Shown: in pieces, positions 2,226 through 50,196 of the stretch
Layout of the letters: each line of letters opens with the position of its first letter
Position numbering within the stretch: the first letter of the stretch is position 1
Source: Alphaproteobacteria bacterium
Lineage (GTDB): Bacteria; Pseudomonadota; Alphaproteobacteria; GCA-2746255
Length of the DNA: 64,000 nt
Assembly (NCBI GenBank): GCA_965249135.1
Contig: OZ252220.1
Location: 1,056,001-1,120,000 of the forward strand
Direction of reading: 5' to 3'
Made by a program: the position numbers and the translations under genes
The notes under the pieces: model-generated
Databases searched by the model: none
The model's input: the letters and a program-made list of their open reading frames with translations, nothing else
Told to the model about the DNA's origin: nothing

Positions 2226-2534
2226 GGGGATTATATACGATTTTAGCCAAATACTGTCTAACTAATTGATATAACGAGATATTATGTCTCTTGACATTAC
2301 GCCGTCGTAACCCTATATTTCTAGCCATGGGGAGACAGAACATGGCGAAGCGCAACAAACCCGAGATCATGAGCACCTGGGACTTCATGGCGCGGTTCCC
2401 GACGGACAAGGATGCGCCCCACCTGCGGCAGCGGCGCCGCGATGGATATAGCCATCGATGAGAAGGCGGGCAGCACCTGTCGCCGTCGTGATGCAACTCA
2501 CCATCTGACCTGTGACATCCCGTATATAAGTCCC
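2226..2534 (+). mobile_element. internally deleted IS1595-family element (MITE-like)
   Basis: Ends GGGGATTATATACG / CGTATATAAGTCCC; ATG at 2342 gives MAKRNKPEIMSTWDFMARFPTDKDA, resembling an IS1595 transposase N-terminus, then truncated. Confidence 0.75.
2291..2319 (+). promoter_or_regulatory. sigma70-type promoter
   Basis: TTGACA-N17-TATATT upstream of GGGGAG and ATG at 2342. Confidence 0.6.
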
Positions 2535-2654
2535 GAAAATTGCGGTTGCATAACCACTGGCCCGCTCAAGGAAACTTGGGCGGGCTACTCTTTGGCACAA
2601 AATCAACACATAAAAACAAAAAGGCCAATTGAAACAACGCCAGACTTGGTGCGA

Positions 2655-2705
2655 ACGTCCTTGGTAAGGGTGAGGTCGAGTGTTCGATCCACTCCGGCGG
2701 CACCA
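2655..2705 (+). pseudogene. 3' half of tRNA-Thr(GGT); att-site core
   Basis: CCTTGGTAAGGGTGAGGTCGAGTGTTCGATCCACTCCGGCGGCACCA: anticodon arm, T arm and CCA present, no D arm or 5' acceptor strand. Confidence 0.8.
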
Positions 2706-2828
2706 CGAAACCCCTTGAAAATAAAGACTTGTAAAAATGTAGCGTCAAAACTAGTTACAGTTATTGACGGAACTTTACGAGAACTAACGTGCAATTACGA
2801 TAAAATACGTGCAAAATCCGCGCACGCC

Positions 2829-2843
2829 GTTCTTGATGTGTTC
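2829..2843 (+). promoter_or_regulatory. alphaproteobacterial LexA (SOS) box
   Basis: GTTC-TTGATGT-GTTC (GTTC-N7-GTTC) upstream of GGGAGG and ATG at 2859. Confidence 0.6.
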
Positions 2844-2985
2844 CCTAGGGAGGTTTCTTATGACAGCGAAAGACACATCATATCTGGAATTGCTGGAAGG
2901 GTTGGATCCACCGCACTAAGCGCGGCCTACTCAATGCCTGGTATCATCATCAAGAACGGCAAGCCAATTCTGGCTTAAGGGAGTC

Positions 2986-3000
2986 AAGTATATAATTCCC
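2986..3000 (-). mobile_element. isolated IS1595-type terminal inverted repeat
   Basis: AAGTATATAATTCCC, identical to the ends at 5890, 49486, 49841 and 50196. Confidence 0.7.
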
Positions 3001-3041
3001 CAAGCAAACACCAGTGGCCGTCATCGCCACATTTTATCCAT

Positions 3042-3401
3042 TTAACTGTCAGCATCATTCGATTCCTTCATTCCCGTAGTTGACGGCTGCCCCTTCTCGC
3101 CGTCCCGATAGACAAGCTCAAAGCTGTTTTCCAGAATACCGAGCCAGAGCTCGCGTTCGGACTTCGGCCATGTGTCGCCGGACTTGGGGAGCCGATTAAT
3201 AATCCCCCGAATAATGAGGTCTAAACTGAGCTCATTGCCATCCCTGTCGCTCGCATCCGCACCATTGCTAACGTAGCTGGGCACATAGGAGTCGTACCCA
3301 GGTATAGTCAGTTGGCGACCTGAAGTTGTGTCACCACTTTGGATGCCCTTCGGGAATGTTTCAAGCTCTTCCACAGACGCGCCGGTTTTCCGAGCAGCCA
3401 T
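3042..3401 (-). CDS. hypothetical protein, probably a fusion of fragments
   Basis: GGAGGG RBS; C-terminus LIIRGIINRLPKSGDTWP...WL looks protein-like, N-terminal part heterogeneous. Confidence 0.45.
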   Translation of the reverse strand: MAARKTGASVEELETFPKGIQSGDTTSGRQLTIPGYDSYVPSYVSNGADASDRDGNELSLDLIIRGIINRLPKSGDTWPKSERELWLGILENSFELVYRDGEKGQPSTTGMKESNDADS

Positions 3402-3502
3402 TGGTCCCTCCCTAGCTTCCGTTTCTCGTTTTCGGCGAGTGTTCCATATAACAAGACTTTCCTGTTAACTTTTCGTTAATTAGGGGTATGGGTAGTGCCC
3501 CC

Positions 3503-3661
3503 TGCATCTGCAACAGAAAAGGTGTCATTTAAGTCACGATTTCGCCACATCTCTGGCAGTTTAGCGGTGGCTCTTTCCCGGCGCTTTCTTGCTCATGATC
3601 CGTCCTCTTGTAATGTGACTCTGCTGTAAAGGAACGGCCCAGTAATGCCAACGCCAAAATG
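3503..3661 (-). pseudogene. IS1595 transposase 5' remnant (MSKKAPGKSHR)
   Basis: 3503-3613 nearly identical to the interior of the 347-bp units; minus strand encodes MSKKAPGKSHR then stop; 3644-3661 matches the subterminal sequence at 48048-48065. Confidence 0.6.
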
Positions 3662-3729
3662 CGGTATTAGGTAGCAAACGCACCTAAAATCCCCTCAAAT
3701 CTTCTCGTGGGATTTCATATGCTTAGGGC

Positions 3730-4164
3730 ATGGCCGAGCCGCACGTTGCCACCGCCCTGATCCGCAAGCGCGGGGAGATCGCCGGGCAAATCGAACACGC
3801 TCAAACGGTCCTCCGGCAACTCATCATCGACTTGGACAACCTAGACGCCACGTTGCGCCTATTCGTCCCTGACATCGAATTGGAGGACATCAAGCCAAGG
3901 CCCTTCCCGCCTCGTCACGCGGCCTTCAAGGGTGAGGTAACGCGGATCGTGTTTGAAACCCTCAGGCAGGCCAATGAGCCGATGATGGCCCAGCAAATCG
4001 CTCAACGGGTCATGGCCGAGAGGGGGCTGAATGCTGCCGATAAACGGCTGGTTAGGCTGATTGGGAAGCGGGCCGGGGCCTGTCTAAGGCATTGGCGTAA
4101 TAAGGGACTGCTCAAGTCGAATGCGGGCATCGGACGGCGTATCGTTTGGGAGATTGCGGGTTAG
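3730..4164 (+). CDS. hypothetical coiled-coil/wHTH protein of the type often found next to IS1595 transposases
   Basis: MAEPHVATALIRKRGEIAGQI...LDATLRLF; intact 144-aa ORF; association recalled, not searched. Confidence 0.7.
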   Translation: MAEPHVATALIRKRGEIAGQIEHAQTVLRQLIIDLDNLDATLRLFVPDIELEDIKPRPFPPRHAAFKGEVTRIVFETLRQANEPMMAQQIAQRVMAERGLNAADKRLVRLIGKRAGACLRHWRNKGLLKSNAGIGRRIVWEIAG

Positions 4165-4293
4165 TCGCTTTCCTTTTTCACCACTGACAGATTTGCCTTG
4201 TTGTCCTCTATGCGCTTCTTTCGGGCTGCCTCGTATCGCTTGCGAACCTCCGGTTCGTCATCAAGACATCTGGCGATGTATTCTTCAACCGCC

Positions 4294-4806
4294 TCACGGA
4301 TTTGTATTTATGGCCTCTTTCCAATGATCATCCAACTGGAATTGAGTCGCTGTCATTGCGGATTCATCAACCAGGTCAAGCTCTTCAAGGGTTTCAAGTA
4401 TTAGGTCGCGCAGTAACTCTAACTCTTCGTCTGTTGCAAGACATGCAAAGAAAATAATTCGCAGAAGCTTTTCCGCATCACCGGGAATTTCGCACTGGCC
4501 TTTTTCCCAACGCGCAATTGATTGCGGATTGTTACCTAGACGTTCGGCCAATGCGCTTTGTGTAAGGTCTAAAGTATTCCGCAGAAATTTGACATCCTTA
4601 CCTGTTAAACCTTTTCGCTTTGAAACAATGTGACGTCCAATCGCCATATGGAGTTCATCTACATTGCGGACAAAGACGTGGCGTTCCCCTTCATGCTTCT
4701 TAACATCATACCCATTCAGCAAATAGATGCCGTCCAGACCACACGCTTTGTAATGGTATGGCTCACTGCGGACTTCTTCCCCTATTCTGAAAAAATGATC
4801 GCTCAT
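4294..4806 (-). CDS. XRE-family HTH protein (MqsA/HigA-like antitoxin)
   Basis: YHYKACGLDGIYLLNGY N-terminus; LTQSALAERLG...SIARWEKG HTH; ATG at 4806 overlaps the stop of a truncated upstream gene. Confidence 0.75.
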   Translation of the reverse strand: MSDHFFRIGEEVRSEPYHYKACGLDGIYLLNGYDVKKHEGERHVFVRNVDELHMAIGRHIVSKRKGLTGKDVKFLRNTLDLTQSALAERLGNNPQSIARWEKGQCEIPGDAEKLLRIIFFACLATDEELELLRDLILETLEELDLVDESAMTATQFQLDDHWKEAINTNP

Positions 4807-4836
4807 GAGTCTTCCCATTCCACTGTCTTAATATAA

Positions 4837-5106
4837 GGGGATTATATACGAAAGTCACATTTTACCGGTAAAGAGGATGGCCGGTGCATCTGCAACAGAA
4901 AAGGTGTCATTTAAGTCACGATTTCGCCACATCTCTGGCAGTTCAGCGGTGGCTCTTTCCCGGTGCTTTCTTGCTCATGATCCCGGGGGATTTGTGCTTG
5001 CTCATGGATAGAAATATGGGGATATGACACGCCAATGTTAATCCATAAAATAGTAAGCAATATCAGCTATATAATACTGATACGGCTAGGATTGTATATA
5101 AGTCCC
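4837..5106. mobile_element. 270-bp IS1595-derived MITE
   Basis: GGGGATTATATACGAAAGTCACATTTT ... GTATATAAGTCCC; first ~147 bp shared with the units at 49140-50196. Confidence 0.8.
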
Positions 5107-5122
5107 AAAAATTGAGGCCATG

Positions 5123-5150
5123 AAAAAAGGCCGGGGTTACAGCCCCGGCC
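5123..5150 (-). terminator. intrinsic terminator
   Basis: GGCCGGGG-N6-CCCCGGCC hairpin with adjacent A6 (U-tract on minus strand). Confidence 0.55.
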
Positions 5151-5266
5151 CATGGTCCCCGCTTCAACTAGAAGGCCGCTGCGGGGCAAAGTGAATTTTC
5201 AAGGTGGAGTATTTCCCCCCTGAATCACGAAGTCAAGCGGCCTTCGATTAAACGACGGAGGCCATA

Positions 5267-5593
5267 ATGGCTGACACACCTACAATCGACTGGGCCGGAA
5301 AATCTGGCAAAACATATCGGCATTGGATTTTCCCGCTTCCTCCGAATTTCAAGGCGGAGGAAGGTAACTACGTTTTTGCCAAAGAAACCGCGCCGAATAA
5401 CGGAAAGTGGTTGCCAATCTACATTGGGCAGACGGAAAACCTTAACGAGCGCTTCGACGACCATCATGCAATGCCTTGCATAAAACGAAACGGGGCTACG
5501 CATATTCACGCACACGCGAATAAATCAAAACAGACGCGTCTCGATGAAGAGGCCGGCCTGATAGCCGAATGGAACCCGCCATGTAACGGTTAA
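5267..5593 (+). CDS. GIY-YIG-like nuclease domain protein
   Basis: GNYVF...PIYIGQTENLNERF..H, distal E; GGAGG RBS. Confidence 0.7.
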   Translation: MADTPTIDWAGKSGKTYRHWIFPLPPNFKAEEGNYVFAKETAPNNGKWLPIYIGQTENLNERFDDHHAMPCIKRNGATHIHAHANKSKQTRLDEEAGLIAEWNPPCNG

Positions 5594-5781
5594 CGGGTTT
5601 TAGGCCGTTGGGGGTTTTCCGAATCTGAAAAATCGTTTTGGGAAACCCCCATCTGGTCCCTCACGCTCGCTGTCTTATGTAGTTTCGGCGGCGTATTCAG
5701 CATCCGCTTGGCGAGCGCATCCCGGCGTTTCGCCGTCTCTTTTTCGGTCAATTCGTCTTGATTTTTTGAGGACTTAGCCAT
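5590..5781 (-). CDS. small basic protein of the kind found downstream of IS1595 transposases
   Basis: ETAKRRDALAKRMLNTPPKLH; lies 110 bp inside the end at 5890 where a transposase would be expected. Confidence 0.5.
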   Translation of the reverse strand: MAKSSKNQDELTEKETAKRRDALAKRMLNTPPKLHKTASVRDQMGVSQNDFSDSENPQRPKTR

Positions 5782-5798
5782 GTCTGATTACCAGTTCA

Positions 5799-5890
5799 TT
5801 TGCTTCGCCATAATCGCATCATGGTGCTGATGTACATCAATGTACATTGATGCGCTTGCTGCCTAATGGGGAGTTAAGTATATAATTCCC
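5799..5890 (-). mobile_element. IS1595-type end segment with 18-bp palindrome
   Basis: Nearly identical to the last ~92 bp of the 347-bp units; ends in AAGTATATAATTCCC. Confidence 0.75.
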
Positions 5891-6168
5891 AAATCAAAGA
5901 CACCCATGTTGTCAGACGCCAAAATGCGAAGACGCACTTGCGGACGGACCGCGATGGCAGGAAAAGCAACAACCTCGATTACATGGCTGGCGGCGGCTAA
6001 AGCCAGTAGGTGAAGCGCGGCTTCATAACGCGTTCATTCCTGTAATCGTCGAGATTCCGGTACAGGTTGGCCGTTATGGAGCCGTCTTCATCGTCCCGGA
6101 ATATTTCGCTCGCGATATAAATTTTATCGTCCAAGACGACGAGATAATCATAGTTTCTCAGCATCATC
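5891..6168. repeat. 278-bp dispersed repeat, copy 1 (copy 2 at 50534-50811); 3' fragment of an unknown gene
   Basis: One mismatch seen; both copies encode MMLRNYDYLVVLDD...PRFTYWL on the minus strand. Confidence 0.9.
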
Positions 6169-6186
6169 GCGGTGCTTCGTTTGCGC

Positions 6187-6708
6187 TTAGGCTTTTTTTG
6201 CGGCTTCGGTGAGGGCATCGGTTTTTTGCTTCGAGCCGGCCGAAGATCCGAAATAGTAGCCGACCACGTCCTTGACCATCCAGCCAAGCGCGCCAAGCAA
6301 GACCAAGAACGGCTTCTCTACTCCGGCAGGCAGCGGAATGAATACCAAAGTGAACATGATCCCGAAGAAGCCGGCGATGATCATCGTCCCCATGGCGGCC
6401 GGCGTCCGGTCCTTGACTTTTATTTCACGCCTGCGGGCGCTGTCGCGGTCCTTCATGGCAATCTCTTCGAGCTTGACGCCGGCGTTCTTCATCTCGATGG
6501 CAAACTTGTGATCGGCCTCTCGGATCTTGAGCGCGATCTCCGGGCCGCCGCTCTGGATGGCTGCCGCAAGATCATCCTCGCTTGCGTTCTCATCGCCGAG
6601 GAGTTCCCTGGCCAAGGTCTTGACCGCCATACCAGCAAGCGGGCCTCCGAAGACTGTAGCGATACCTGGCGCGATTTCGCCAACAATCGACTTCCAATCG
6701 AAATCCAT
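6187..6708 (-). CDS. holin-like membrane protein
   Basis: APGIATVFGGPLAG, DRDSARRRE, two TM helices, YYFGSSAGS; next to lysozyme. Confidence 0.75.
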   Translation of the reverse strand: MDFDWKSIVGEIAPGIATVFGGPLAGMAVKTLARELLGDENASEDDLAAAIQSGGPEIALKIREADHKFAIEMKNAGVKLEEIAMKDRDSARRREIKVKDRTPAAMGTMIIAGFFGIMFTLVFIPLPAGVEKPFLVLLGALGWMVKDVVGYYFGSSAGSKQKTDALTEAAKKA

Positions 6709-6711
6709 TTC

Positions 6712-7122
6712 CTAACCCTCCAGGATTAGGCCGGCGGCGCGCGTGGCGCGTTCGCCGACCTGTACGGCCCAGCGGCTGTTAAGCGCCTCCGCCGCTGCGT
6801 CTTCGAAATCTCCCAGCTCCATGGCGCCAAGCATCTTCTTGAACTGAGACAAGCGGGGCCAGCCAAGGTTGAGGCACATGTTCCTGAGCGCCCGCTGCCG
6901 CGGTTCGCTCATTTTCGTCCACCAGGGGACGTTCCCGTTCAGGTTGCGCCGTACTTCTTCGAGATCGTTCCCGAGCAAGACCAGCGCTTCTGCTTCGGTG
7001 ATCCCCCTGTCGTCCAGGTTCCTGCCGATGCCGATGGTGAGCTTGCCGGCCGTGTCCCGGTAAGGATGCAGCCGAAGCCCTTCGTCACGGATGAGGTCTT
7101 TGACGATTTCTTCCATCGTCAA
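6712..7122 (-). CDS. phage lysozyme (GH24-like endolysin)
   Basis: DEGLRLHPYRDTAGKLTIGIGRNL; AAAEALNSRWAVQVGERA. Confidence 0.9.
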   Translation of the reverse strand: MTMEEIVKDLIRDEGLRLHPYRDTAGKLTIGIGRNLDDRGITEAEALVLLGNDLEEVRRNLNGNVPWWTKMSEPRQRALRNMCLNLGWPRLSQFKKMLGAMELGDFEDAAAEALNSRWAVQVGERATRAAGLILEG

Positions 7123-7406
7123 AACCCCTTAAGCATCGCTGCCATGACCGGGTGGAGGAGCGGGACAAGATGGGTAGTTCCCATATCCAGCATCAAGACC
7201 ACCAGGATCCCGTAGACGGCGGCTTTAAGTGATCTGTTGGATTTTGAGTTGTCCGCCAACGTGGCGAAGATCGAGCGCAGGATGAGAACCAAGGCGTTAT
7301 AGCGATCCGTGCAGCGGGACGCATGCAGCGCAGGGTCGTCTATCTCGCGCGGGTCGAACTTGAGCGCCTCAAAATAATCGGCCTCACTGTGGTCATGGGG
7401 CGCCAT
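7119..7406 (-). CDS. phage membrane protein upstream of the endolysin
   Basis: ATG at 7406 after GGAGGG; C-terminal hydrophobic helix. Confidence 0.55.
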   Translation of the reverse strand: MAPHDHSEADYFEALKFDPREIDDPALHASRCTDRYNALVLILRSIFATLADNSKSNRSLKAAVYGILVVLMLDMGTTHLVPLLHPVMAAMLKGF

Positions 7407-7582
7407 GGGTTCACGGCCCTCCTGGGGTGCGTTGAGACCAGCGTTCCTTAAGCCTTTGGCCATAATCACGTCTCATCCTTTTCTCAGCCATTGCGCGCCT
7501 CCTTGGGGTGTGTAGTGGTTAGGCCCTGGTCCTTGTTCACGCAGGGACCGGGGCTGCCGGCGTAATTGCTTCATGGAACATC

Positions 7583-8353
7583 TCAGGCAACGGCCCCCTT
7601 CAGTTGCGCCGGGCCGGGCGTGCCACTCGCCCATTCGAGGGTGCCGCCTTCTTTTTTGACTGCAATGCCGGCGTTCCCGCCTGACCCGCCGCCGCCATCA
7701 CCGGATTGACCGGAAGCTCCAGCCGCCCCAGGTGCCCCGCCAACGCCGCCATTTCCAGCGTTCCCTGGCCCAGACCCGCCAGCCCCGCCGGCCGTTTCCG
7801 TGCCTGCAGCGCCATTCGTGCCGCCTATGCTGGCGCCCGCCCCGCCGGCACCTGCATCTCGTCCAGCACCTCCGCCTGACCCGCCGCCGCCTTTCGTATC
7901 GTTGCCGCCACCGCCAGCACCAGCGGCGCCACCTCCGGCAAAGATCCCGCCAGATGAATTGACCTCGATGATCCAATAGTGGCCGCCAAGGCCGATGGCA
8001 TCGCCACCGTTGCCGCCTGAACTGCCAGGTAGCGCGCCGGTCCCGAATTTGCCGCCGCCGCCCGCCGCGCCCAGACCGCCCTTGCCACGAATGCCGCTCC
8101 CATCGCCGACATTGAGAGAAATGATCGTGCCGGGCGGCAGCGTCCCTGACTTGAGTGCTGCGGTCAGAACGTCCGCCGAATAGATGTCGGCGTTGCTGGA
8201 AAGCGTCAGCTCGAGCAGGGCCTTGGCGGTGCCGTCCCATGCCGTGTTCGTTTCGAACAGGCTCTCGATGGTCTGGTTCGCTGCGCCGGACGAGAGCGTG
8301 TAGGAATAGATGGGCAGCGTCTGCGAGATGATGGGAATGCGGGTGAGCAGCAT
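7583..8353 (-). CDS. glycine-rich tail-tip adhesin (gp38-like)
   Basis: IRGKGGLG..GGDAI..IFAGGG and long Gly-rich motifs; paralogue at 52650-53408. Confidence 0.7.
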   Translation of the reverse strand: MLLTRIPIISQTLPIYSYTLSSGAANQTIESLFETNTAWDGTAKALLELTLSSNADIYSADVLTAALKSGTLPPGTIISLNVGDGSGIRGKGGLGAAGGGGKFGTGALPGSSGGNGGDAIGLGGHYWIIEVNSSGGIFAGGGAAGAGGGGNDTKGGGGSGGGAGRDAGAGGAGASIGGTNGAAGTETAGGAGGSGPGNAGNGGVGGAPGAAGASGQSGDGGGGSGGNAGIAVKKEGGTLEWASGTPGPAQLKGAVA

Positions 8354-9213: not shown

Positions 9214-9283
9214 CGGTCACTCCTGATTTTTGGCAAGAAAAAACCCGCCGGAGCGGGGTCGTTTTAGAAAAGACTGTTAAGGC

Positions 9284-9438
9284 GGGGGCGGGCCATGGCC
9301 GCCCAAGGTCTGGCGTTCGCCTATCGCCGGTATTCCGATTTATACGTCGCTACCGAGGAATCCGCGGAAGCTGCCGGCGCCGGAGTCTGGTCCGAAGACG
9401 TGGCACCGCCTTGGGAATGGCGGAAGAAAAACCGCTAG
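9284..9438 (+). pseudogene. thermonuclease (SNase) C-terminal fragment
   Basis: Translates to AMAAQGLAFAYRRYSDLYVATEESAEAAGAGVWS...PPWEWRK*; 5' part absent. Confidence 0.7.
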
Positions 9439-10005: not shown

Positions 10006-10127
10006 CGCAGTTCTCCTCTGCTGAGCTCTGCAAATGGAAAGTAACGGTACAACCCCTTAAAATTCCTTAAGAAGCTGTTTCTTCGCCGTTCGCCTCCCCC
10101 CGCAGCGGCTCACCTCACAATATGACT

Positions 10128-16544: not shown

Positions 16545-16545
16545 A

Positions 16546-19854: not shown

Positions 19855-20274
19855 GGGCAGTCCAGGGCCTCCTTCACCGGTCTCAATCGAAATCGCCTGG
19901 CCGGCCGTCACGGTCGGCGTAGACGCCGCCGAAATGTTCTCGACGAGGACGTTGATGTAGCGTTCGTTGACGTTGATCTCATTGCCGGACGGGTCCTGCC
20001 AGGTCAATGGGTTAGGGTGTTTCTTGATTCGCAGAGGTGTTGACTATGTCAGCGCTGGGGCCTGCACGCGAAAATGGCGTCAAGAACAAGGCCGCCGCCG
20101 AGCTTGGCCGGCTGGGCGGTCAGGCGCGGGCGAAGAAACTGAGTTAAGAAACGGCGGGCGGAGATTGCCAGGAAAGCTGCAAAAAAAAGATGGAAAAAAG
20201 AGGAGTCTACTTGACACAAAACGAAGATTAGAGGAGTACACTTGTCACAGCTTGGGGCAAGCAGGATTCCAATA

Positions 20275-20943
20275 ATGATCGATTACTCAGCCCGCCTTTC
20301 AGCGGCATATCCGAAAACCACATATTCCGCGACGTTGCGCGGATTGAGGGAAGGCGCCGCCTTCGGCGACGAAGCAATTAAGGGCATACCAATGTTCGGC
20401 ACCCCTGTGGGCCGCGATCTTCGGGGGCTGGTACGCCGCGCGGGGGTACTGCATCGAATCCAGCAAATGTGTCGCGCAGGTGATCTACCTTTCCAATGTG
20501 AAATGATCCCTATGCCGCGAGGCAGTTGGCATTGGTTAGAACTATACAGCGCCAACATAATCTCGCATCCCGTTCGGACTGCCGATCATATTTCCTTCCC
20601 GGAAGACACTCCCAATCGCCAAGACCAGAGGACGCGGAATCAGGGGGGCTTATTTGAAGACGCCAATGTGGTTCCTGTCTCCAGTGAATCTACATTGTAC
20701 GCTTGGCTTTGCTATGGCGTAACTCGCAATGGTGCATTGACTCACGCGTGCTGGAACATGCCATCGGCGGCAAACGAAGAATGGCTCGCGCGCATTGACA
20801 TTTTGAACGCGGTTCGCGAGGAACAGTTATCTCAAGAGACGCCCTCAACGGAGAAAGTAGACCCAAGGGAAGCAATGAGCTTTAGGGACTCTATTGCCGC
20901 GACAATCGAGGGGCTAGACAAAGATAAAGATGAAAAAAAATGA
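20275..20943 (+). CDS. hypothetical protein, candidate RosmerTA-type toxin
   Basis: 222-aa ORF with ATGA coupling to an XRE-ImmA/IrrE gene; no known motif recognised. Confidence 0.65.
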   Translation: MIDYSARLSAAYPKTTYSATLRGLREGAAFGDEAIKGIPMFGTPVGRDLRGLVRRAGVLHRIQQMCRAGDLPFQCEMIPMPRGSWHWLELYSANIISHPVRTADHISFPEDTPNRQDQRTRNQGGLFEDANVVPVSSESTLYAWLCYGVTRNGALTHACWNMPSAANEEWLARIDILNAVREEQLSQETPSTEKVDPREAMSFRDSIAATIEGLDKDKDEKK

Positions 20944-43217: not shown

Positions 43218-43219
43218 CG

Positions 43220-44098
43220 TCAGCCGCCGCCCGTCTCGCTTGCCAGCCACGCCTCGCAGCACCCCTTGGCAAGCGCACGCACGCGGGCGATATAGGCGGC
43301 GCGCTCCGTCACGCTGACGACGCCGCGCGCATCCAGCAGGTTGAAGAGGTGGCTTGCCTTGATGCACTGGTCATAGGCCGGAAGCGCGAGATGCTTCTTC
43401 AACAGGTCCTCGCATTCGGCTTCGACATCGGCGAACTGCCGCAACAGGCGTTCCGTATTCGCATGCTCGAAGTTGTAAGCCGAATATTCGCGTTCGCTCG
43501 TAAGAAAGACGTCGCCATAGGTGACGCCTTCCTCGCCGGACTTTCCGTTCCAGTCGAGGTCGAAGACGTTCTCGACTTCTTGTACGTACATGGCGAGCCG
43601 CTCGATGCCATAGGTGAGTTCCGCCGACACCGGATCGCATTCGATGCCGCCCAGCTGCTGGAAATAGGTGAACTGGGTTATCTCCATGCCGTCGCACCAC
43701 ACCTCCCAGCCGAGCCCCCAGGCGCCGAGCGTCGGGCTTTCCCAGTCGTCCTCCACGAAGCGAATGTCGTGGAGCATCGGGTCGATGCCCAGATGCTTGA
43801 GGCTACGCAGGTAGACGTCCTGTACGTCGTCGGGCGAGGGTTTTAGGATGACCTGGAACTGGTAGTAGTGCTGCAGGCGATTCGGGTTCTCGCCATAGCG
43901 CCCGTCCTTGGGCCGGCGGGAGGGCTGGACGTAAGCGGCGCGCCATGGCTTCGGCCCAAGCGCGCGCAGCGTCGTCGCCGGGTGAAAGGTGCCCGCGCCG
44001 ACCTCCATGTCGTAGGGCTGGAGCAGCACGCAGCCCTCGTCGGCCCAGAAGGTCTGGAGCCTTAGGATAAGGTCCTGAAAGGAGGGAGGGTTCACCAT
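43220..44098 (-). CDS. glyQ: glycine-tRNA ligase alpha subunit
   Basis: [37 protein letters not shown]. Confidence 0.97.
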
Positions 44099-44101
44099 CG
44101 C

Positions 44102-44311
44102 TTACCTATAGGGGCAGTCTTCACGCTCGCAGGCCTTGTCGGGGACTGTGCGATAGACGCCGCAGACCGGGCATTCCTTCATATCCAGCGCGTCCGGGCC
44201 CGACTTCGAGTCTCCCCTGCCGAAGAATCCGGTGATCCATTTGTAGCCGTACCAAAGGACCGCGAGGATGACGGCGGCGACGAAAAGCTTAACGAGATTA
44301 AGCGCAAACAT
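44102..44311 (-). CDS. small membrane protein with C-terminal CxxC
   Basis: TM helix then CPVCG..C..DC. Confidence 0.65.
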   Translation of the reverse strand: MFALNLVKLFVAAVILAVLWYGYKWITGFFGRGDSKSGPDALDMKECPVCGVYRTVPDKACEREDCPYR

Positions 44312-44407
44312 GCCGCGTCACGTCTTTCTGTTGCCAAGCCCCTGGCCGTTTCCGAGCCCCTGGTCGCAAACCATACGGGGAGGAAGGCGGGTTGCCAACC
44401 AGCGCGG

Positions 44408-45187
44408 TCACGGCCGGCCGAGGGCAAGTGCGGCGCCCTTGCGAAGCACCGCTTCGAGCTCACGCGTATAGGCCCCCTCGTCATCCTGGAGCAGCAGCGC
44501 GTTGGCGTGGGTCGGCTCGCCTTGCGCCCCTTTGCGGCCCTGAACGAGGACGCGCTTGGCCGGCTTGCCGGCGTTCGCGCGGAGCGGCAAGACCCGGATG
44601 GCGCCCAACTCCCCGGCCAAGAGACCGAGCAGTTCGTCCAGCCGGTCGAAGCGGTGGAGGAAGGTGAGCGTGCCTTCCGGCTTTACCATGCAAACGGCGA
44701 AACGGACCCAGTCGGAAAGCCGCGCCACGTCTTCCACATGGGCCAAGCGCCTTCCTGGATGGGCAGGCCGGCTTCCCTTTGCCGCATCAAAATGGGGCGG
44801 GTTCGCCATCACATGATCGTAAGCGCACTCGCGAAAGCTCAAAGGCGGGTCGAGCAGGTCGCCAAGCCGGATGCGAAGGCGTAGCTCAAATCCGTTTTGG
44901 CGAACGTTCCGCTGGGCAAGCGCGAGCAAGGACGCCTGCAGCTCGATGCCGTCGATGCGCACGTGAGGAAGCCGGCTTGCCAGGCAAAGCGCCGCCGCCC
45001 CGCTGCCGGCACCGACGTCGAGCACGCGCTCGCCCGCTTTCGCGGGCACCGCGGCGGCAAGCAGCACCGGATCGATCGCCACCCGATAGCCGCATTCGGG
45101 TTGCGTCAACTTCACACGCCCGTCGAGCAGCGTGTCTTCTGTCAATGCGGGCGTCAACGCAGGCGTCAACGGATTTTTGTTTTCCAT
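44408..45187 (-). CDS. tRNA1(Val) A37 N6-methyltransferase family
   Basis: GYRVAIDPVLLAA, VLDVGAGSG, NPPH. Confidence 0.85.
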   Translation of the reverse strand: MENKNPLTPALTPALTEDTLLDGRVKLTQPECGYRVAIDPVLLAAAVPAKAGERVLDVGAGSGAAALCLASRLPHVRIDGIELQASLLALAQRNVRQNGFELRLRIRLGDLLDPPLSFRECAYDHVMANPPHFDAAKGSRPAHPGRRLAHVEDVARLSDWVRFAVCMVKPEGTLTFLHRFDRLDELLGLLAGELGAIRVLPLRANAGKPAKRVLVQGRKGAQGEPTHANALLLQDDEGAYTRELEAVLRKGAALALGRP

Positions 45188-45188
45188 C

Positions 45189-45395
45189 TCAAGCCCGCTC
45201 CGCTTCTTCCAGAATGCCTTGCGCACGGGGAAAGTCGTCGTCGGCCACCATCACCCGACGCGGGATCGCGTTTGCGCTGCCTTCCAGAATGCTCATATGT
45301 GAATCGAACACGACCGCCTCGATGGCCGCGTCCTTGAACCGTGCCATCAACCACGAAAGCAGCACCGGATCGTTCGTACGCAACAATTCCTTCAT
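45189..45395 (-). CDS. DUF2007 family protein
   Basis: MKELLRTNDPV..D.HMSILEGS..IPRRVMV. Confidence 0.8.
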   Translation of the reverse strand: MKELLRTNDPVLLSWLMARFKDAAIEAVVFDSHMSILEGSANAIPRRVMVADDDFPRAQGILEEAERA

Positions 45396-45479
45396 GACGA
45401 GAAGCGGCTTGACCGGTGTGGAAGGGGACTTCTATGCTCCCCGAAACGGCTAGATGTCAAGCAACGCTAGGGTGTCAGG

Positions 45480-46499
45480 GTGGGAGTCGTTGTAAATCTG
45501 GAAAGCGCCGATCGAAAGACGCGCGCCGCCTTCGATCGGGTCAGCGCCTTGGTCCGAGAGGACCTCGAGGCCGTCAACCGGGTCATCCTCGACAATTTGC
45601 AAAGCCGCGCACCGCTGATCCCGCAGCTTGCCAATCATCTCATCGCGTCGGGCGGCAAGCGCCTGCGCCCGATGCTGACTCTCGCCTCGGCCCGGCTGTG
45701 CGGCTATGCGGGCACGCGCCATGTCGGCCTTGCGGCGAGCGTCGAATTCATCCACACGGCGACGTTGCTCCATGACGACGTCGTCGACGCAAGCGATCTC
45801 AGGCGCGGCGAGGCTTCGGCGAATGCGCTTTGGGGAAATGAATCGAGCGTGCTGGTCGGTGACTTCCTGTTTGCGCGCGCCTTCCGGCTCATGGTGGCGG
45901 ACGGATCCTTGAAGGTGCTCACCATCCTTTCGGACGCAGCCAGCACGATCGCGGAAGGCGAGGTGCTGCAGCTTTCGACGTCGAACGATCCGGAGACCAG
46001 CGAGGCGAGCTATCTGGAGGTCGTGCAGGCGAAGACCGCCGCCCTGTTCGCGGCCGCCTGCGAGGTCGGCGCCGTGCTGGCGGACCGCCCGCAAATCGAG
46101 GAGGAGGCGCTTCGGAGCTATGGCCTCAACTTAGGGACCGCGTTCCAGCTGGTCGACGACGTGCTCGACTATTCCGCCCACGAAAAGACGCTGGGCAAGA
46201 CGATCGGCGACGATTTCCGGGAAGGAAAGATCACGCTGCCCGTCGTGCTGGCCTTCCGCCGCGGGGATGAAGAGGAGCGCCGCTTCTGGTGCCGGACCGT
46301 CGAGGAGCTGAACCAGAGGGAAGGCGACCTTGCACGCGCCATCGAGACGATGGCGGGCCGCGATGCGCTCACCGATACGATCGCGCGCGCGCGCCACTAT
46401 GGATCGGTGGCCCGCGATGCGCTCGGCATCTTCCCGGACGGACCGGAGAAGGAGGCGTTGGCCGACCTCGTCGATTTTTGCATCGAGCGGACCTATTAG
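45480..46499 (+). CDS. ispB: polyprenyl diphosphate synthase
   Basis: GGKRLRP, LLHDDVVD..RRG, FQLVDDVLD. Confidence 0.9.
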   Translation: MGVVVNLESADRKTRAAFDRVSALVREDLEAVNRVILDNLQSRAPLIPQLANHLIASGGKRLRPMLTLASARLCGYAGTRHVGLAASVEFIHTATLLHDDVVDASDLRRGEASANALWGNESSVLVGDFLFARAFRLMVADGSLKVLTILSDAASTIAEGEVLQLSTSNDPETSEASYLEVVQAKTAALFAAACEVGAVLADRPQIEEEALRSYGLNLGTAFQLVDDVLDYSAHEKTLGKTIGDDFREGKITLPVVLAFRRGDEEERRFWCRTVEELNQREGDLARAIETMAGRDALTDTIARARHYGSVARDALGIFPDGPEKEALADLVDFCIERTY

Positions 46500-46547
46500 C
46501 GCGTAAGGTGCGTGCTTTATGCGCCGAGATTGTTTAGGAGGTGTGAA

Positions 46548-47147
46548 ATGCCATTACCCCCCCTGGCTGTTCTGGCTCTGCTAGCAAGAAGGCTCCGCAC
46601 CCTGCGCCGATTGTTCATCCTCCTGATCGGCGGACCCCTTTTCGCCATCGGAGTCATTGCCGCACTCCTGATCTTCCTCGACCAGTTGACGGCGCGGCGG
46701 GCGGAGGCGATCGTCGCCGGCTTGGGTGGCCCCACCCAGCAAGCCACCGTTATCAATGTCGCGACATGGGTGGCGACGGAGTTCGATCAACACCTAGATG
46801 ACGCGCCCTGGTACCGGAAATACGACTTCTTATTGTCGCACCGGATCATGCCGGGGTTTTTGAGGTTGAAGCGCGGCTCTCTCGCATTGCTGTACATGGA
46901 TGGTGCATGCAACAACATGAGCTGGGTTCTGGAACGCCTCTATACCGAGCTTGGGATAGAAGCCATCCAGCACAACTGGATCGGGGCAAGCTCCGCGCAC
47001 TCCGCACTTTCTGTGCGGCTGAATGGCGCTTGGGCCTGGGTCGATCCCTTCTACGGCGTCGCTTTCGCCGAAAGAGGAAAACTCATCTCTTTGTCCCGCT
47101 TACAAGAACTGGTATCCGCGGGCGCCGAGCCTAAGGAGAATACATGA
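46548..47147 (+). CDS. membrane-anchored transglutaminase-like protein
   Basis: AGGAGG RBS; TM helix; GAC...HSAL...WVDP putative C-H-D triad. Confidence 0.6.
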   Translation: MPLPPLAVLALLARRLRTLRRLFILLIGGPLFAIGVIAALLIFLDQLTARRAEAIVAGLGGPTQQATVINVATWVATEFDQHLDDAPWYRKYDFLLSHRIMPGFLRLKRGSLALLYMDGACNNMSWVLERLYTELGIEAIQHNWIGASSAHSALSVRLNGAWAWVDPFYGVAFAERGKLISLSRLQELVSAGAEPKENT

Positions 47148-47635
47148 TCGCCTTGAGCGAGAAACCCGTGTTGCGGGCCTACGATGGAATCGATAGTGTT
47201 TCCCATGGGCGCGACGGTGATCCGGTCCATGCAACCATACTTTTGCCGCTTGAAGGAGGCGCCATAACGGTCGGAAGACTTGACGGTCAATGGACCGACG
47301 TCTTCAAACAGGGGCTGCAAAGGGAACTGACCAGCCATCTACATTATGTCGGCCCGCGGCACAGTCGCTATTTCTTCTTCCGCTTCGCTGTCTTACCTTC
47401 CGCCGCACCACGTGGATTCCGGATTGTCTATCACTTGTTGGACGCGATTGATCCCGACAACCTTCCCGTAAGCAACGTCGAGCCCCGGCTGGATGCGAAC
47501 CGGCTGATTTACGAAACGACCGACCCGAGCCAGGGGATCCGCTTATCCTATAAGGACATGCGATGGACTTTGACCAATCTGTTCCGACGCCGCTCCTGGT
47601 ACAACGTCGACATGGTTGAGTTCGTGCCACTGTGA
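47144..47635 (+). CDS. hypothetical protein (possibly the frameshifted C-terminus of the previous gene)
   Basis: ATGA overlap; 163 aa. Confidence 0.5.
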   Translation: MIALSEKPVLRAYDGIDSVSHGRDGDPVHATILLPLEGGAITVGRLDGQWTDVFKQGLQRELTSHLHYVGPRHSRYFFFRFAVLPSAAPRGFRIVYHLLDAIDPDNLPVSNVEPRLDANRLIYETTDPSQGIRLSYKDMRWTLTNLFRRRSWYNVDMVEFVPL

Positions 47636-47776
47636 TGACGGTTCGGGAGTGGCCGCCGCTTCCATTTCACGGACCCCGATGGGTACGAGCTCGCAGTGTG
47701 GACGAAAGCCTAGAAGCGGGCCGCCTTCGCCGCTTGTCGGACGTCCGACTTTAAGGGTATAAGGCGGCCCTTGGTT

Positions 47777-47853
47777 CGGAGTGTAGCTCAGCCTGGTAGA
47801 GCACCGTCTTCGGGAGGCGGGGGTCGGTGGTTCAAGTCCACTCACTCCGACCA
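47777..47853 (+). tRNA. tRNA-Pro(CGG)
   Basis: CGGAGTG acceptor stem, D arm, CCGTC-TTCGGGA-GGCGG anticodon arm, TTCAAG loop, CCA end. Confidence 0.97.
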
Positions 47854-47936
47854 GTGTTTTCAATGACTTAAATTAAAAAAAACAGTGCGCTGTTGGTTCA
47901 AATGAACCATAGGAGAGAAAAATGGTCCCAATTAAA

Positions 47937-48086
47937 GGGGATTATATACGAAAGTCACATTTTACCGGTAAAGAGGATGGCCGGTGCATCTGCAACAGAA
48001 AAGGTGTCATTTAAGTCACGATTTCGCCACATCTCTGGCAGTTCAGCAATGCCAGCGCCAAAATGTGACTTTCGTATATAATCCCC
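47937..48086. mobile_element. 150-bp IS1595-derived MITE with perfect 27-bp TIRs
   Basis: GGGGATTATATACGAAAGTCACATTTT / AAAATGTGACTTTCGTATATAATCCCC. Confidence 0.9.
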
Positions 48087-48206
48087 AAAAATATAGGGAG
48101 GTTTCATATTGACGAAGGCCTAGATGTGCACAGAATTATGGGGGCACTTGAGAAGGCCGGTGGATGACCCTGAAATTATCTTCGGGGAAGATGTTCGAGT
48201 GCTGTT

Positions 48207-48896
48207 CTATTTAGCAGCGGCCGTTAACGCTACGATAATTCCAATAATCGCTATGCCAGCGCTGACGACGACCGGAACAATCCATCTTATGCTATCTACC
48301 GAGGTAGTGAGCCTAGTAACGTCAGTGGCTAATTCCGCCACGTTACTACTTAAGGAGCGGAGCGTCGTCATCATTTCCGATAATGCCATACCTTCGCTTT
48401 CGGTGATGAACTCGATTTCTTCTGCGCCAAGTTCATCCCTGTCCTGGTAGGGGCCGTTATATGGCTCGCTCGCGGCTTCCTCAAGGCGGTGGAACTCGAC
48501 AGAAATCAGATCATCTTTGTGCGGCAGAGAAACAGGCTTTGGCGTCAAGTTTGTGAGTCCGATTATCAACCGCCCCCGATAGCCGGGGTCGATTTGGGGG
48601 CCAGTGGTCGCGATTAGACCCTTCCGGGCATATTTCGAACGAAGGCCAAATCGAGCGGCGTATTGAGCGCCGAGCTCTATTTTCTCAAAAACCACTACTA
48701 CCGCAAAGTCGCCGGGCGCAAGTTGAACAAACCCATCTTTCTTAATATCAACCCTGCGTTTGGTGCTTGTAGTGGCCCCCTGATCTCCAACCCTTAGATC
48801 GTAAGTTGCAGCCTGGACTTGCCGATCGTCAAACGGCTCAATCTTGATGTCACCATTCTCCACAGCTTCTCTAATCTGACGATCAGTAAGAATCAT
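48207..48896 (-). CDS. dCTP deaminase/dUTPase-fold protein with C-terminal coiled coil and TM helix
   Basis: MILTDRQI, YDLRVG, RSKYARKG, IDPGYRG, YNGPYQ; tail WIVPVVVSAGIAIIGIIVAL; AGGAG RBS. Confidence 0.88.
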   Translation of the reverse strand: MILTDRQIREAVENGDIKIEPFDDRQVQAATYDLRVGDQGATTSTKRRVDIKKDGFVQLAPGDFAVVVVFEKIELGAQYAARFGLRSKYARKGLIATTGPQIDPGYRGRLIIGLTNLTPKPVSLPHKDDLISVEFHRLEEAASEPYNGPYQDRDELGAEEIEFITESEGMALSEMMTTLRSLSSNVAELATDVTRLTTSVDSIRWIVPVVVSAGIAIIGIIVALTAAAK

Positions 48897-48921
48897 TGGC
48901 TTATTCTCCTAGTGCACTATA

Positions 48922-48936
48922 GAACAAAATAAGAAC
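48922..48936 (-). promoter_or_regulatory. alphaproteobacterial LexA (SOS) box
   Basis: GAAC-AAAATAA-GAAC, adjacent to a minus-strand TATAGT (-10-like), 26-40 bp upstream of the Dcd-like start. Confidence 0.7.
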
Positions 48937-49139
48937 AAATACAACCACCCTGAATGCTCTTACTTGTCCTAATTTGAAAGCCGGGCGTCCTATTTAGGAC
49001 AGCACCCTAAGCATCGGCACCTGGATATCGGATACGTAGTATCACGGTGGACGCAGGCCAAGCCAGAGCAGTGTTGGAAAAGCTGAAGCGCGGGGAAAAA
49101 CGCGGGGAAAACCCGCTAAGAGGTTGAAGCGTAAAAAAG

Positions 49140-50196
49140 GGGGATTATATACGAAAGTCACATTTTACCGGTAAAGAGGATGGCCGGTGCATCTGCAACA
49201 GAAAAGGTGTCATTTAAGTCACGATTTCGCCACATCTCTGGCAGTTCAGCGGTGGCTCTTTCCCGGCGCTTTCTTGCTCATGATCCGTCCTCTTGTAACG
49301 CGTTATTTGCGCACCCTTGTAGCCTTCGCTTAGGTCCGCTAGATCATTGTCGGGGCCCTGCCTAATTCATAACGCGCAGGCGCATCGCTGTTCTTTTGCT
49401 TCGCCATAATCGCATCATAGTGCTGATGTACATCAATGTACATTGATGCGCTTGCTGCCTAATGGGGAGTTAAGTATATAATTCCCCAATTAAAGGGGAT
49501 TATATACGAAAGTCACATTTTACCGGTAAAGAGGATGGCCGGTGCATCTGCAACAGAAAAGGTGTCATTTAAGTCACGATTTCGCCACATCTCTGGCAGT
49601 TCAGCGGTGGCTCTTTCCCGGCGCTTTCTTGCTCATGATCCGTCCTCTTGTAACGCGTTATTTGCGCACCCTTGTAGCCTTCGCTTAGGTCCGCTAGATC
49701 ATTGTCGGGGCCCTGCCTAATTCATAACGCGCAGGCGCATCGCTGTTCTTTTGCTTCGCCATAATCGCATCATAGTGCTGATGTACATCAATGTACATTG
49801 ATGCGCTTGCTGCCTAATGGGGAGTTAAGTATATAATTCCCCAATTAAAGGGGATTATATACGAAAGTCACATTTTACCGGTAAAGAGGATGGCCGGTGC
49901 ATCTGCAACAGAAAAGGTGTCATTTAAGTCACGATTTCGCCACATCTCTGGCAGTTCAGCGGTGGCTCTTTCCCGGCGCTTTCTTGCTCATGATCCGTCC
50001 TCTTGTAACGCGTTATTTGCGCACCCTTGTAGCCTTCGCTTAGGTCCGCTAGATCATTGTCGGGGCCCTGCCTAATTCATAACGCGCAGGCGCATCGCTG
50101 TTCTTTTGCTTCGCCATAATCGCATCATAGTGCTGATGTACATCAATGTACATTGATGCGCTTGCTGCCTAATGGGGAGTTAAGTATATAATTCCC
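49140..50196. repeat. three identical 347-bp TIR-bounded units (49140-49486, 49495-49841, 49850-50196) separated by CAATTAAA
   Basis: Period 355 bp; each unit starts GGGGATTATATACG and ends AAGTATATAATTCCC. Confidence 0.95.

Follow-up and report, generated by a model that had tools for sequence, protein, structure and literature searches.

Transposase-less derivatives of IS1595-family insertion sequences near the attachment sites of neighbouring prophages

Transposon-type ends and their prophage surroundings

The 64,000-bp stretch analysed here (hereafter the window) belongs to a genome that consists of a single 2.1-Mb contig (C1). A search allowing up to one mismatch found 14 exact matches to the terminus motif GGGRMTTATATAC in the window, whereas 0.03 matches are expected by chance (maximum 1 in 100 shuffles). 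All of them lie at the positions and on the strands reported in a preliminary description of this DNA, and the whole genome contains 27 such ends. The terminus consensus is GGG(G/A)(A/C)TTATATAC, and the flanking 8-mers are A/T-rich, as had been described. At 3000, 5890 and 49486 the outer right end is the GGGAATTATATACTT variant, again in agreement with that description, as are the ends at 49841 and 50196.

The ends cluster in two islands, which had been placed beside a tRNA or tRNA fragment and lysis genes, and these landmarks are present. At 2659-2705 (+), 47 bp from the 3' end of tRNA-Thr(ggt), matched by BLAST to C1:1011912-1011973, form the att repeat that ends prophage 1 (C1:1011958-1058705) and starts the next prophage; aragorn placed the tRNA-Thr itself at C1:1011884-1011958. 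In the other island, prophage 3 is attached at tRNA-Pro(cgg) (47777-47853, +), of which the 3' 44 bp are repeated at C1:1142387-1142430. The lysis genes are an endolysin gene (6712-7122) and a holin-like gene (51286-51861). Apart from the prophage tyrosine integrase at 866-1855 (PF00589), which is paired with the tRNA-Thr att repeat, no recombinase lies close by. An integron-like or recombinase-driven cassette system was considered and rejected, since the repeats are inverted termini of transposon type, accompanied by 8-bp duplications. Of all 8-mers in the genome, 1.0% contain at least 7 A/T, and among 5-kb bins the islands fall within the top 1-3% for such A/T-rich 8-mers, a count to which the elements themselves contribute.

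Intact elements elsewhere and transposase-less copies in the window

As the preliminary description had noted, transposase survives in the window as stubs only: 33 codons at 2342-2437, and an 11-codon start (MSKKAPGKSHR) in the miniature elements (minis). A genome search for the end motif and for an intact IS1595 transposase with matching ends found four intact elements, all outside the window. Three of these, ISA (2515 bp), ISC (2511 bp) and an element at C1:887984-890711 (2728 bp; the 888-kb element), have exact 8-bp target-site duplications (TAAAAAAG, AATCGAAA and TTCGTAAA, respectively), and the flanks of ISB (3666 bp) agree at 7/8 positions. Each carries, within terminal inverted repeats, an intact transposase gene and a Type II restriction-modification (R-M) module: an N6_N4 methylase and a REase_II (PADLOC, 7e-41) in ISA, Dcm, HNH and Vsr in ISB, MTase_II (9e-117) in ISC, and a methylase with a BglII-like enzyme in the 888-kb element. 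The transposases of ISA and ISB have an N-terminal zinc ribbon and an IS1595-type DDE domain (PF12760 in both; PF12762 at 5.7e-44 and 4.7e-42; NF033547 at 190.6 and 181.5 bits, respectively, cut-off 75), so that the earlier assignment of the ends to the IS1595 family is borne out by cognate transposases in the same genome. The named best matches to the transposases are described only as 'IS1595 family transposase', with less than 40% identity. The sequence GGGGATTAT fits 'ggnnatTAT', the form of the ends in the ISNwi1 subgroup, some of whose members bear passengers. A tRNA-Gln gene lies 33 bp from ISA.

The window copies trace to three of these elements. An ISA-derived stub of 309 bp lies at 2226-2534 (-). 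Its part 2226-2417 is the transposase-proximal 192 bp of ISA (99.5% identity to C1:1283342-1283533), which takes in the end, the promoter region and transposase codons 1-33, and the rest (2418-2534) is unrelated sequence that terminates in a GGGAC-type end and matches nothing else in the genome. The stub is without a duplication because its flanks differ (TAAAGAAA versus GAAAATTG). ISC is represented by a solo end at 2920-3000 (-), the last 81 bp of the element (100% identity to C1:33972-34052), which holds the end and the 3' end of the restriction-enzyme-like gene with the common C-terminus ..AYSMPGIIIKNGKPILA, and which recurs at the paralogous place C1:1012173-1012253. Most window copies trace to a single deletion derivative of ISB, in which position 119 is joined to 3557, a junction common to forms of 228, 270, 347, 348 and 358 bp. 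An end-less fragment of this lineage at 3503-3661 (-) has ISB 22-119 joined to 3557-3618, both termini being gone, and a 270-bp mini at 4837-5106 (-) consists of ISB 3557-3666, ISB 82-119 and 123 bp of another transposase-upstream region terminating in GGGACTTATATAC. The ISB-derived minis retain the 27-bp ISB ends at 98-100% identity, while their transposase-upstream side is a mosaic with at least four variants. Being short, without transposase and present in several copies, with the ends of the parent and an internal deletion, they have the features of miniature inverted-repeat elements (MITEs).

Exact 8-bp repeats flank three non-autonomous units in the genome, bearing out the proposal of duplications around transposase-less units: a 228-bp mini outside the window (AAAAACTG), a transposase-less hicAB unit at C1:1978040-1979190 (TAATTTAG on both sides), whose outer end is ISB-type and not GGGAA, and the unit at 47937-49486 (CAATTAAA). 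No own duplication was found at 2226-2534, 4837-5106 or 47937-48086, nor at any single 347- or 348-bp copy. A tRNA-Lys gene lies 263 bp from the hicAB unit.

Units with other DNA between their ends

The 1550-bp unit at 47937-49486 is the sole one in the window with flanking direct repeats, CAATTAAA being at 47929-47936 and 49487-49494. On the left it has a 150-bp mini (47937-48086, -), which is the 228-bp mini with a further internal deletion and whose 27-bp terminal inverted repeats are perfect and the same as in ISB; on the right it has a 347-bp mini (copy a, 49140-49486, -) made of ISB 3557-3666, ISB 70-119 and 187 bp ending in GGGAATTATATACTTAACTCCCC. The DNA between them (48087-49139, -) is single-copy in the genome and includes a gene (48207-48896, -) for a 229-aa dCTP-deaminase-like (Dcd-like) protein with an additional hydrophobic C-terminal tail (PF22769, 1e-24; TIGR02274, 106.8 bits, cut-off 92.8), for which PADLOC gave no hit. 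The two minis bracket the dCTP-deaminase-like gene in the manner of a small compound transposon.

Copy a is followed head-to-tail by copies b (49495-49841, -) and c (49850-50196, -), both 100% identical to it, with CAATTAAA between neighbours (at 49842-49849 after copy b), and the identity of the three points to recent events. Since CAATTAAA also separates the tandem minis, the repeat around 47937-49486 may have been inherited from the array and not made by a composite insertion. On its right the array is flanked by CAAAAAAA, which is unlike the left 8-mer; this counts against the explanation that we favour below. The two ends of the 347-bp mini also differ, one being ISB-type and the other ISC-like, and are identical over the first ~13 bp only; one transposase might or might not be able to use them jointly.

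The element at 4837-5890 (1054 bp) starts with the 270-bp mini and continues with cargo at 5107-5793, where 5267-5593 (+) is a 108-aa, weakly GIY-YIG-like ORF (E 0.0027, below the Pfam cut-off) and 5590-5781 (-) a 63-aa ORF. It terminates in a 97-bp GGGAA-type end module (5794-5890, -), which contains an 18-bp perfect palindrome (5835-5852) and is 97.9% identical to part of the 347-bp minis. Its outer flanks, TAATATAA and AAATCAAA, differ, so that it is without a duplication. The window at 2659-7558 equals C1:1011912-1016105 at 99.8% identity except in one place, where 104 bp stand instead of the 810 bp at 4984-5793, and the sister prophage has a plain 348-bp mini at the site of 4837-5890. This difference appears to be an internal cargo swap, and cargo variation of the kind anticipated in the preliminary description was therefore seen, between two paralogous sites of one genome. 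The other variation anticipated among relatives, empty sites, did not appear: the five same-genus genomes, being too divergent, offered no usable one for the window units. Contigs of public runs held paralogue junctions only, with no second location or empty site, plasmids gave no match to the window units, metagenome contigs gave no exact end matches, and the cargo DNA of the units is unique in the genome.

The order of left, inner right and outer right ends had been read as a cassette design occurring three times, at 2226-3000, 4837-5890 and 47937-49486. The order does recur three times, but the design is not supported. As one cassette, 2226-3000 was rejected because it spans the att junction (attR) between two prophages, an accidental adjacency, and the other two reflect common ancestry, their outer ends not being independent because they are the same 97-bp module. 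Neither 2226-3000 nor 4837-5890 has a duplication around the whole unit; cargo between two usable ends together with such a duplication was found at 47937-49486 and C1:1978040-1979190.

Origin of the copies and relation to known systems

We consider it likely that the ends come from related insertion sequences (IS) of the IS1595 family, present as a swarm, the window holding their non-autonomous derivatives, namely a stub of ISA, a solo end of ISC and an ISB-derived mini lineage with a single junction, in low-GC regions adjoining the attachment sites of three prophages that are related and lie almost side by side. Their placement probably results from concentrated AT-rich 8-mers, tolerated insertions, and modules common by descent or recombination. 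An ISB-type transposase acting in trans would move any DNA between two suitable ends, and to such movement we would attribute the 228-bp mini as well as the hicAB unit and, probably, the Dcd-like unit at 47937-49486. Homologous recombination through common end modules (147 bp and 97 bp) would have swapped the interior of 4837-5890 with that of a plain mini. The tandem minis could have arisen when a unit entered the same 8-bp site once more, next to an end already there, or by an initial insertion and then unequal crossing-over.

The preliminary description had instead proposed a dedicated, trans-mobilised capture and shuffling system with a three-end design, preferring stress or defence genes near prophage attachment sites, which we regard as unlikely. 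8-bp repeats do flank two units that combine cargo with an inner and an outer end (47937-49486 and C1:1978040-1979190), cargo was swapped at one paralogous site, and several elements lie near tRNA genes (ISA near tRNA-Gln, the hicAB unit near tRNA-Lys). Every cargo seen is also defence- or addiction-like (R-M on the four intact elements, hicAB, the Dcd-like gene and the weak GIY-YIG-like gene), and to this extent the claim of stress or defence cargo holds. However, 2226-3000, lying across attR, does not constitute a unit, the GGGAA ends at 5890 and 49486 are one 97-bp module, pointing to ancestry rather than design, the hicAB unit has an ISB-type outer end, and 4837-5890 is without a duplication. 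Loading of prophage ends in particular is also not supported: the intact elements and 2/3 of the duplication-flanked non-autonomous units lie outside the prophages that we delimited, the AT-rich 8-mers that are the evident target are concentrated in the islands, and their availability explains the clustering. In 208 kb of sequence surrounding the same lysis gene, taken from 21 related viral contigs, the end motif gave one, chance-like match and no convincing ends, and the three other genomes with ISB-like ends show only full elements or solo ends. The clustering fits a preference for AT-rich 8-mer targets together with inheritance among related prophages, which suggests that the elements are MITEs along with mobile insertion cassettes (MICs) and MITE-bounded composites, not a dedicated capture system. 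Overall, the preliminary interpretation is partly supported.

Another view, that the window copies are inert debris of old independent insertions, decayed and affected by phage recombination, no longer mobilisable and with leftover repeats, also seems improbable to us. It would account for the end-less fragment 3503-3661, the solo end 2920-3000 and the hybrid ends, for the lack of a duplication at 2226-2534, 4837-5890 and any single 347-bp copy, and for the failure to find a second or empty site in the genomes and contigs searched. The copies, however, match one another, and also the intact ISB ends, at 98-100% identity (27/27 terminal bases), exact 8-bp repeats flank three non-autonomous units, the genome has an intact cognate transposase gene, and the fully identical tandem copies look recent. 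It is hardly credible that the triple at 49140-50196 results from misassembly, through collapse or expansion of a repeat, and stands for a single 347-bp copy. The 355-bp period, the apparently metagenomic origin of the genome and a copy number beyond the reach of short-read contigs would allow such an error, but the genome is a single contig, and run X4 yielded a 63-bp contig (49815-49877) that bridges two ends with CAATTAAA between them, so that at least one abutted junction exists in reads, if possibly in those from which the assembly itself was made.

IS1595-family IS with passenger genes have been called 'transporter IS' (Siguier, Gagnevin & Chandler 2009, cited in PMC3129680 and PMC2853133). 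The intact elements described here match the family in their Zn-ribbon and DDE_Tnp_IS1595 transposase, terminal inverted repeats, 8-bp duplications and passenger genes within the ends, whereas the window copies are without transposase. MITEs and MICs, derivatives that have no transposase, can be activated by a cognate IS (PMC3129680; PMC10969869); the main text of the latter review does not use the word IS1595. The window minis resemble them in being short, non-coding or cargo-only, with parental inverted repeats, an internal deletion and several copies, but differ in the mosaic transposase-upstream side with its four or more variants and in the unlike ends of the 347-bp form; an exact 8-bp duplication of its own is present at one of the minis in this genome, the 228-bp copy. 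Composites bounded by two miniature elements include TIMEs and TIME-COMPs of the Tn3 family (PMC4133298, PMC13367494) and a MITE-flanked blaPER-1 (PMC3934969). Like these, 47937-49486 has two minis in direct orientation around foreign DNA, a direct repeat of target length around the unit, AT-rich targets and a mosaic interior. Unlike them, the composites here carry a Dcd-like gene or hicAB instead of resistance genes or replication modules, and the window unit lies in a prophage; the parent family is also IS1595 and not Tn3 as in the TIME-COMPs. R-M units within inverted repeats and an 8-bp duplication were described by Furuta, Abe & Kobayashi (2010, PMC2853133), who suggested possible non-autonomous movement by a trans-acting transposase. 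R-M genes are enclosed in the same way here, but the R-M-bearing copies encode their own transposase, and the transposase-less copies carry other cargo.

The locus offers a clean case, dated by identity, of an R-M-carrying IS family decaying into miniature elements that are still able to bracket other genes, and perhaps to move them, in this case within prophages. The 810 bp with the GIY-YIG-like gene versus 104 bp would be a concrete cargo exchange between phage genomes via common transposon ends. Current concepts are unchanged; the main effect is a corrected annotation, and the idea of a purpose-built system is tempered. A wider reading, about which we are rather doubtful, is that this clade within the IS1595 family has specialised, across many phyla, in carrying R-M and other defence or addiction genes and that the minis here move and exchange cargo. 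If the minis do move composites and exchange cargo via conserved end modules, prophage accessory regions would be swap sites, and the head-to-tail minis would record insertion directed beside a resident end or, alternatively, a dimer-type junction that bears on the transposition mechanism of the family, which is not known to have been characterised by experiment. The clade would be a common R-M carrier if the proportion among its duplication-flanked relatives (about half of 35, from many phyla) holds beyond our sample. Among the best 80 of 573 transposase relatives, these 35 had inverted ends and an exact 8-bp AT-rich duplication (element lengths, 1386-4971 bp); 97 ORFs were called in them, 62 non-transposase ORFs were searched against Pfam, and R-M-type domains were found in 17/35 elements, or 18 with one just below the cut-off.

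End motif and intact IS1595-family elements

The end motif GGGRMTTATATAC, searched with up to one mismatch allowed, has 14 matches in the window, all of them exact, against an expectation of 0.03 and a maximum of 1 in 100 shuffles. These are the 14 ends of the preliminary description, each of them exact in position and strand, and direct reading of both regions bore out the A/T-rich 8-mers it had noted beside them; its underlying observation is sound. The source genome, one contig (C1, used below as the prefix of whole-genome coordinates) of 2,118,282 bp with a G+C content of 60.3%, contains 27 such ends, including the 14 in the window. Their assignment to the IS1595 family was right: a genome search for a cognate transposase found intact elements with matching ends outside the window, with 8-bp duplications and passenger genes, and the transposases of two of them, ISA and ISB, score well above the cut-offs of the IS1595 models in Pfam and NCBIfam. 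Plasmid relatives of the transposase, at less than 40% identity, are annotated 'IS1595 family transposase'. Eight IS1595-type transposase loci were detected in the genome by tblastn, plus a 33-codon stub in the window.

ISA (C1:1281019-1283533, 2515 bp, TAAAAAAG at both flanks) lies 33 bp from a tRNA-Gln gene. Besides its 328-aa transposase ORF it has genes for an N6_N4 methylase and for a 224-aa protein, the latter matching a Type II restriction enzyme model of PADLOC (7e-41). ISB (C1:1511352-1515017, 3666 bp, flanks GTTATTTA and ATTATTTA) combines a 321-aa transposase with a C5 methylase, an HNH enzyme and Vsr, and has a further ORF of 156 aa. In ISC (C1:33972-36482, 2511 bp, flanked by AATCGAAA) the transposase is accompanied by a Type II methylase (9e-117) and an ORF of 219 aa. 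A fourth element (C1:887984-890711, between copies of TTCGTAAA) has genes for a methylase and a BglII-like enzyme. At least four complete Type II restriction-modification (R-M) modules in this 2.1-Mb genome are passengers of intact IS1595-family elements; a fifth element (C1:671449-674928) has a 745-aa ATPase-like gene.

For the ISB transposase, 573 relatives were confirmed in the species-level genome collection; the 80 best of them are 57-69% identical and come from many phyla. At 35 of these 80 loci a script found inverted ends GGG(G/A)(A/C)TTATA.. together with an exact 8-bp A/T-rich direct repeat, bounding elements of 1386-4971 bp, and in one of them all 27 terminal bases are the same as in ISB. 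When the 62 non-transposase ORFs among the 97 called in the 35 elements were searched against Pfam, R-M-type domains were found in 17 elements (18 if one match just under cut-off is counted), while a Peptidase_M78, a KilA-N/P63C protein, RhuM, CsgG or a nested IS was found in others. The inverted ends, duplications and cargo of the relatives therefore agree with the family, target duplication and passenger genes first supposed. The 8-bp target duplication and passenger genes of the IS1595 family are already described (Siguier et al. 2009, as cited in PMC3129680 and PMC2853133), as are R-M units that lie between inverted repeats and have 8-bp duplications (Furuta et al. 2010, PMC2853133). The elements analyzed here belong to known kinds, namely IS1595 elements with R-M passengers, MITEs, mobile insertion cassettes and composites bounded by transposase-less derivatives (minis).

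Anatomy of the miniature and composite copies

The idea of non-autonomous, cargo-bearing derivatives proved right. When the full elements were compared with the genome by BLAST and the copies were read directly, every ISB-derived mini proved to have the same junction, ISB 119/3557. The simplest form is a 228-bp mini (C1:938705-938932, duplication AAAAACTG); in the others the 110-bp far end is retained along with 38-50 bp surrounding the start of the transposase, and the upstream part varies. This part consists of 187 different bases with the terminus GGGAATTATATACTTAACTCCCC, resembling the ISC end, in the 347-bp form and of 123 different bases with the terminus GGGACTTATATAC at 4837-5106, and in the 358-bp form (C1:1978040) the ISB terminus is joined with a 347-type interior. 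The copy at 47937-48086 is deleted further, down to 150 bp, and that at 3503-3661 has lost both termini. Of the other parents, the transposase-proximal 192 bp of ISA (99.5%) occupy 2226-2417, beyond which comes unrelated sequence that has a GGGAC end, and the final 81 bp of ISC occupy 2920-3000.

The island beside tRNA-Pro(cgg) (47777-47853, the only Rfam match) contains three 347-bp copies (49140-49486, 49495-49841 and 49850-50196) that are 100% identical, head to tail and separated by CAATTAAA, the same 8-mer that lies directly left of 47937. The preliminary description had the ends of this array right and described only in half the identical head-to-tail copies and their spacers. In the stretch 47937-49486, which has CAATTAAA left and right, the 150-bp mini and a complete 347-bp mini are oriented alike and enclose 1053 bp of unique low-GC DNA. 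Neither bounding mini has a duplication of its own, so that these are not separate insertions around a resident gene; the structure is that of a composite bounded by miniature elements, a type known from Tn3-derived TIMEs (PMC4133298) and from MITE-flanked resistance regions (PMC3934969). Its unique DNA encodes a 229-aa dCTP-deaminase-like (Dcd-like) protein (TIGR02274, 106.8 bits against a cut-off of 92.8); there was no PADLOC match to known anti-phage dCTP deaminase systems, and its gene is therefore not counted here among the known defence genes.

Two histories of the array are allowed. A resident mini with CAATTAAA at its left may have been joined by later units, the composite last, each inserted into the same 8-mer, and this order of events accounts for what is seen, the unlike right flank CAAAAAAA included. 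Equally allowed is a single insertion of this kind followed by unequal crossing-over, in which case the cargo may have come in by recombination within the 111 bp that are identical in the two kinds of mini.

A second example of a mini-bounded composite is found outside the window (C1:1978040-1979190), where hicAB lies between the 358-bp mini and a lone 27-30-bp end, the whole being enclosed by the duplication TAATTTAG, 263 bp from a tRNA-Lys gene. Just inside the lone terminal repeat (composite positions 1065-1128; C1:1977500-1979800 region) is a stretch resembling part of a tRNA-Val gene, about 90% identical to C1:85775-85836, which suggests that the hicAB cargo was acquired next to a tRNA gene.

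The 1054-bp element at 4837-5890 lies between TAATATAA and AAATCAAA, and between the same flanks at the paralogous site there is a plain 348-bp mini; neither has a target duplication. The two have arms of 147 and 97 bp in common and differ in the middle only, 810 bp versus 104 bp, the longer stretch comprising a GGGAC end, a 108-aa weakly GIY-YIG-like ORF and a 63-aa ORF. This interior was probably exchanged by homologous recombination via the common end modules. The GGGAA end at 5890 adjoins the base equivalent to 50534 of prophage 3, which has 337 extra bases between its last mini and that base; such a correspondence would be the trace expected of an end-adjacent deletion. The GIY-YIG label is a weak one, with a Pfam E of 0.0027, below cut-off, and GIY-YIG on 12% of the members of the nearest Atlas cluster.

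Directly left of the 4837 end is a 174-aa HTH protein (4294-4818, minus strand) that matches phrog_5119 and has an MqsA-like antitoxin signature (TIGR03830, 46.4 bits, below cut-off). An 18-bp perfect palindrome, CATCAATGTACATTGATG, lies within the 97-bp GGGAA end module at 5835-5852, at 49431-49448 and in the remaining 347-bp copies; it adjoins promoter-like hexamers, in 4837-5890 upstream of the 63-aa ORF, and looks like an operator. Inspection by eye of the abutted ends for a newly created promoter gave no convincing -35/-10 pair.

Prophage setting and clustering

Three related prophages lie nearly back to back (1-2705; 2706 to beyond 24000; 47854-64000, on to C1:1142430), 1 and 2 in tandem at tRNA-Thr(ggt) and 3 at tRNA-Pro(cgg), and their att-proximal and lysis modules are common to all three at 99.6-99.8% identity. 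Prophage 1, whose integrase is at 866-1855, is bounded by the 3'-terminal 47 bp of tRNA-Thr(ggt) (C1:1011884-1011958) and their repeat at 2659-2705. Since 2659-7558 matches C1:1011912-1016105 at 99.8% identity, the related prophage 2 begins directly after this att copy; its structural genes extend beyond 24 kb, and a search for its distal att copy found none. Prophage 3 is bounded by the 3' 44 bp of tRNA-Pro, repeated 38.6 kb downstream. Endolysin and holin-like genes come after each island.

The recurring design of mini, cargo and extra end that had been proposed for three cassettes is not supported. In 2226-3000 the left part belongs to prophage 1 and the right end to prophage 2, so that it is an adjacency across two prophages and not a unit, and the paralogous attL side has the 3000-type end but lacks the ISA stub.

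Nor did we find support for a system that loads cargo at prophage ends. The intact elements are all outside the prophages as delimited here, and the duplications are A/T-rich both here and among the 35 relatives. Of the genome's 8-mers, only 1.0% have at least seven A/T; by their number the 5-kb bins with the window islands are among the top 1-3%, a count to which the elements themselves add. In 21 viral contigs (208 kb) encoding a relative of the 51858-52322 protein the end motif matched once, a chance-like number. AT-rich targets, tolerance of insertions in accessory DNA and common prophage ancestry suffice to explain the clustering.

Other genomes and public data

The 347-bp mini was not found in the 40 other genomes searched, one of which contains just one 27-bp end (96% identity). 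In five genomes of the same genus conservation is limited to the tRNA and about 55 bp beyond, which is too divergent for empty-site calls. One of these five has an unrelated low-GC islet of about 860 bp at tRNA-Pro, and 34 bp of the tRNA 3' end are repeated at its boundary; tRNA-Pro is thus a recurrent integration site in the genus. There was no DNA match to 47937-50196 or 4837-5890 in the plasmid collection, and no exact match to the 29-base GGGAA-end stretch or the 27-base ISB end in metagenome contigs. Contigs from four public runs of one sample were compared with 47600-50600, only the covered parts being informative; no excision or circle was seen in those parts, and the joints 49286>49390, 49996>50100 and 50196>50534 reproduce paralogous copies. 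Trans-mobilisation of the window units is what we infer, movement being seen in none of these data.

Four candidate SOS boxes, GAAC-N7-GAAC direct repeats of the form that LexA boxes take in alphaproteobacteria, are confined to the two low-GC islands (2770-2784, 2829-2843, 48193-48207 and 48922-48936), one of them 26 bp upstream of the Dcd-like gene start; four in the window against 2.2 expected, a number reached in 18 of 100 shuffles, is not significant alone. The ORFs at 20242-20943, in a low-GC insert among phage structural genes and beside a 368-aa HTH protein, and at 50259-50483, just right of the mini array, have the same first 24 residues (MSQLGASRIPIMIDYSARLSAAYP).
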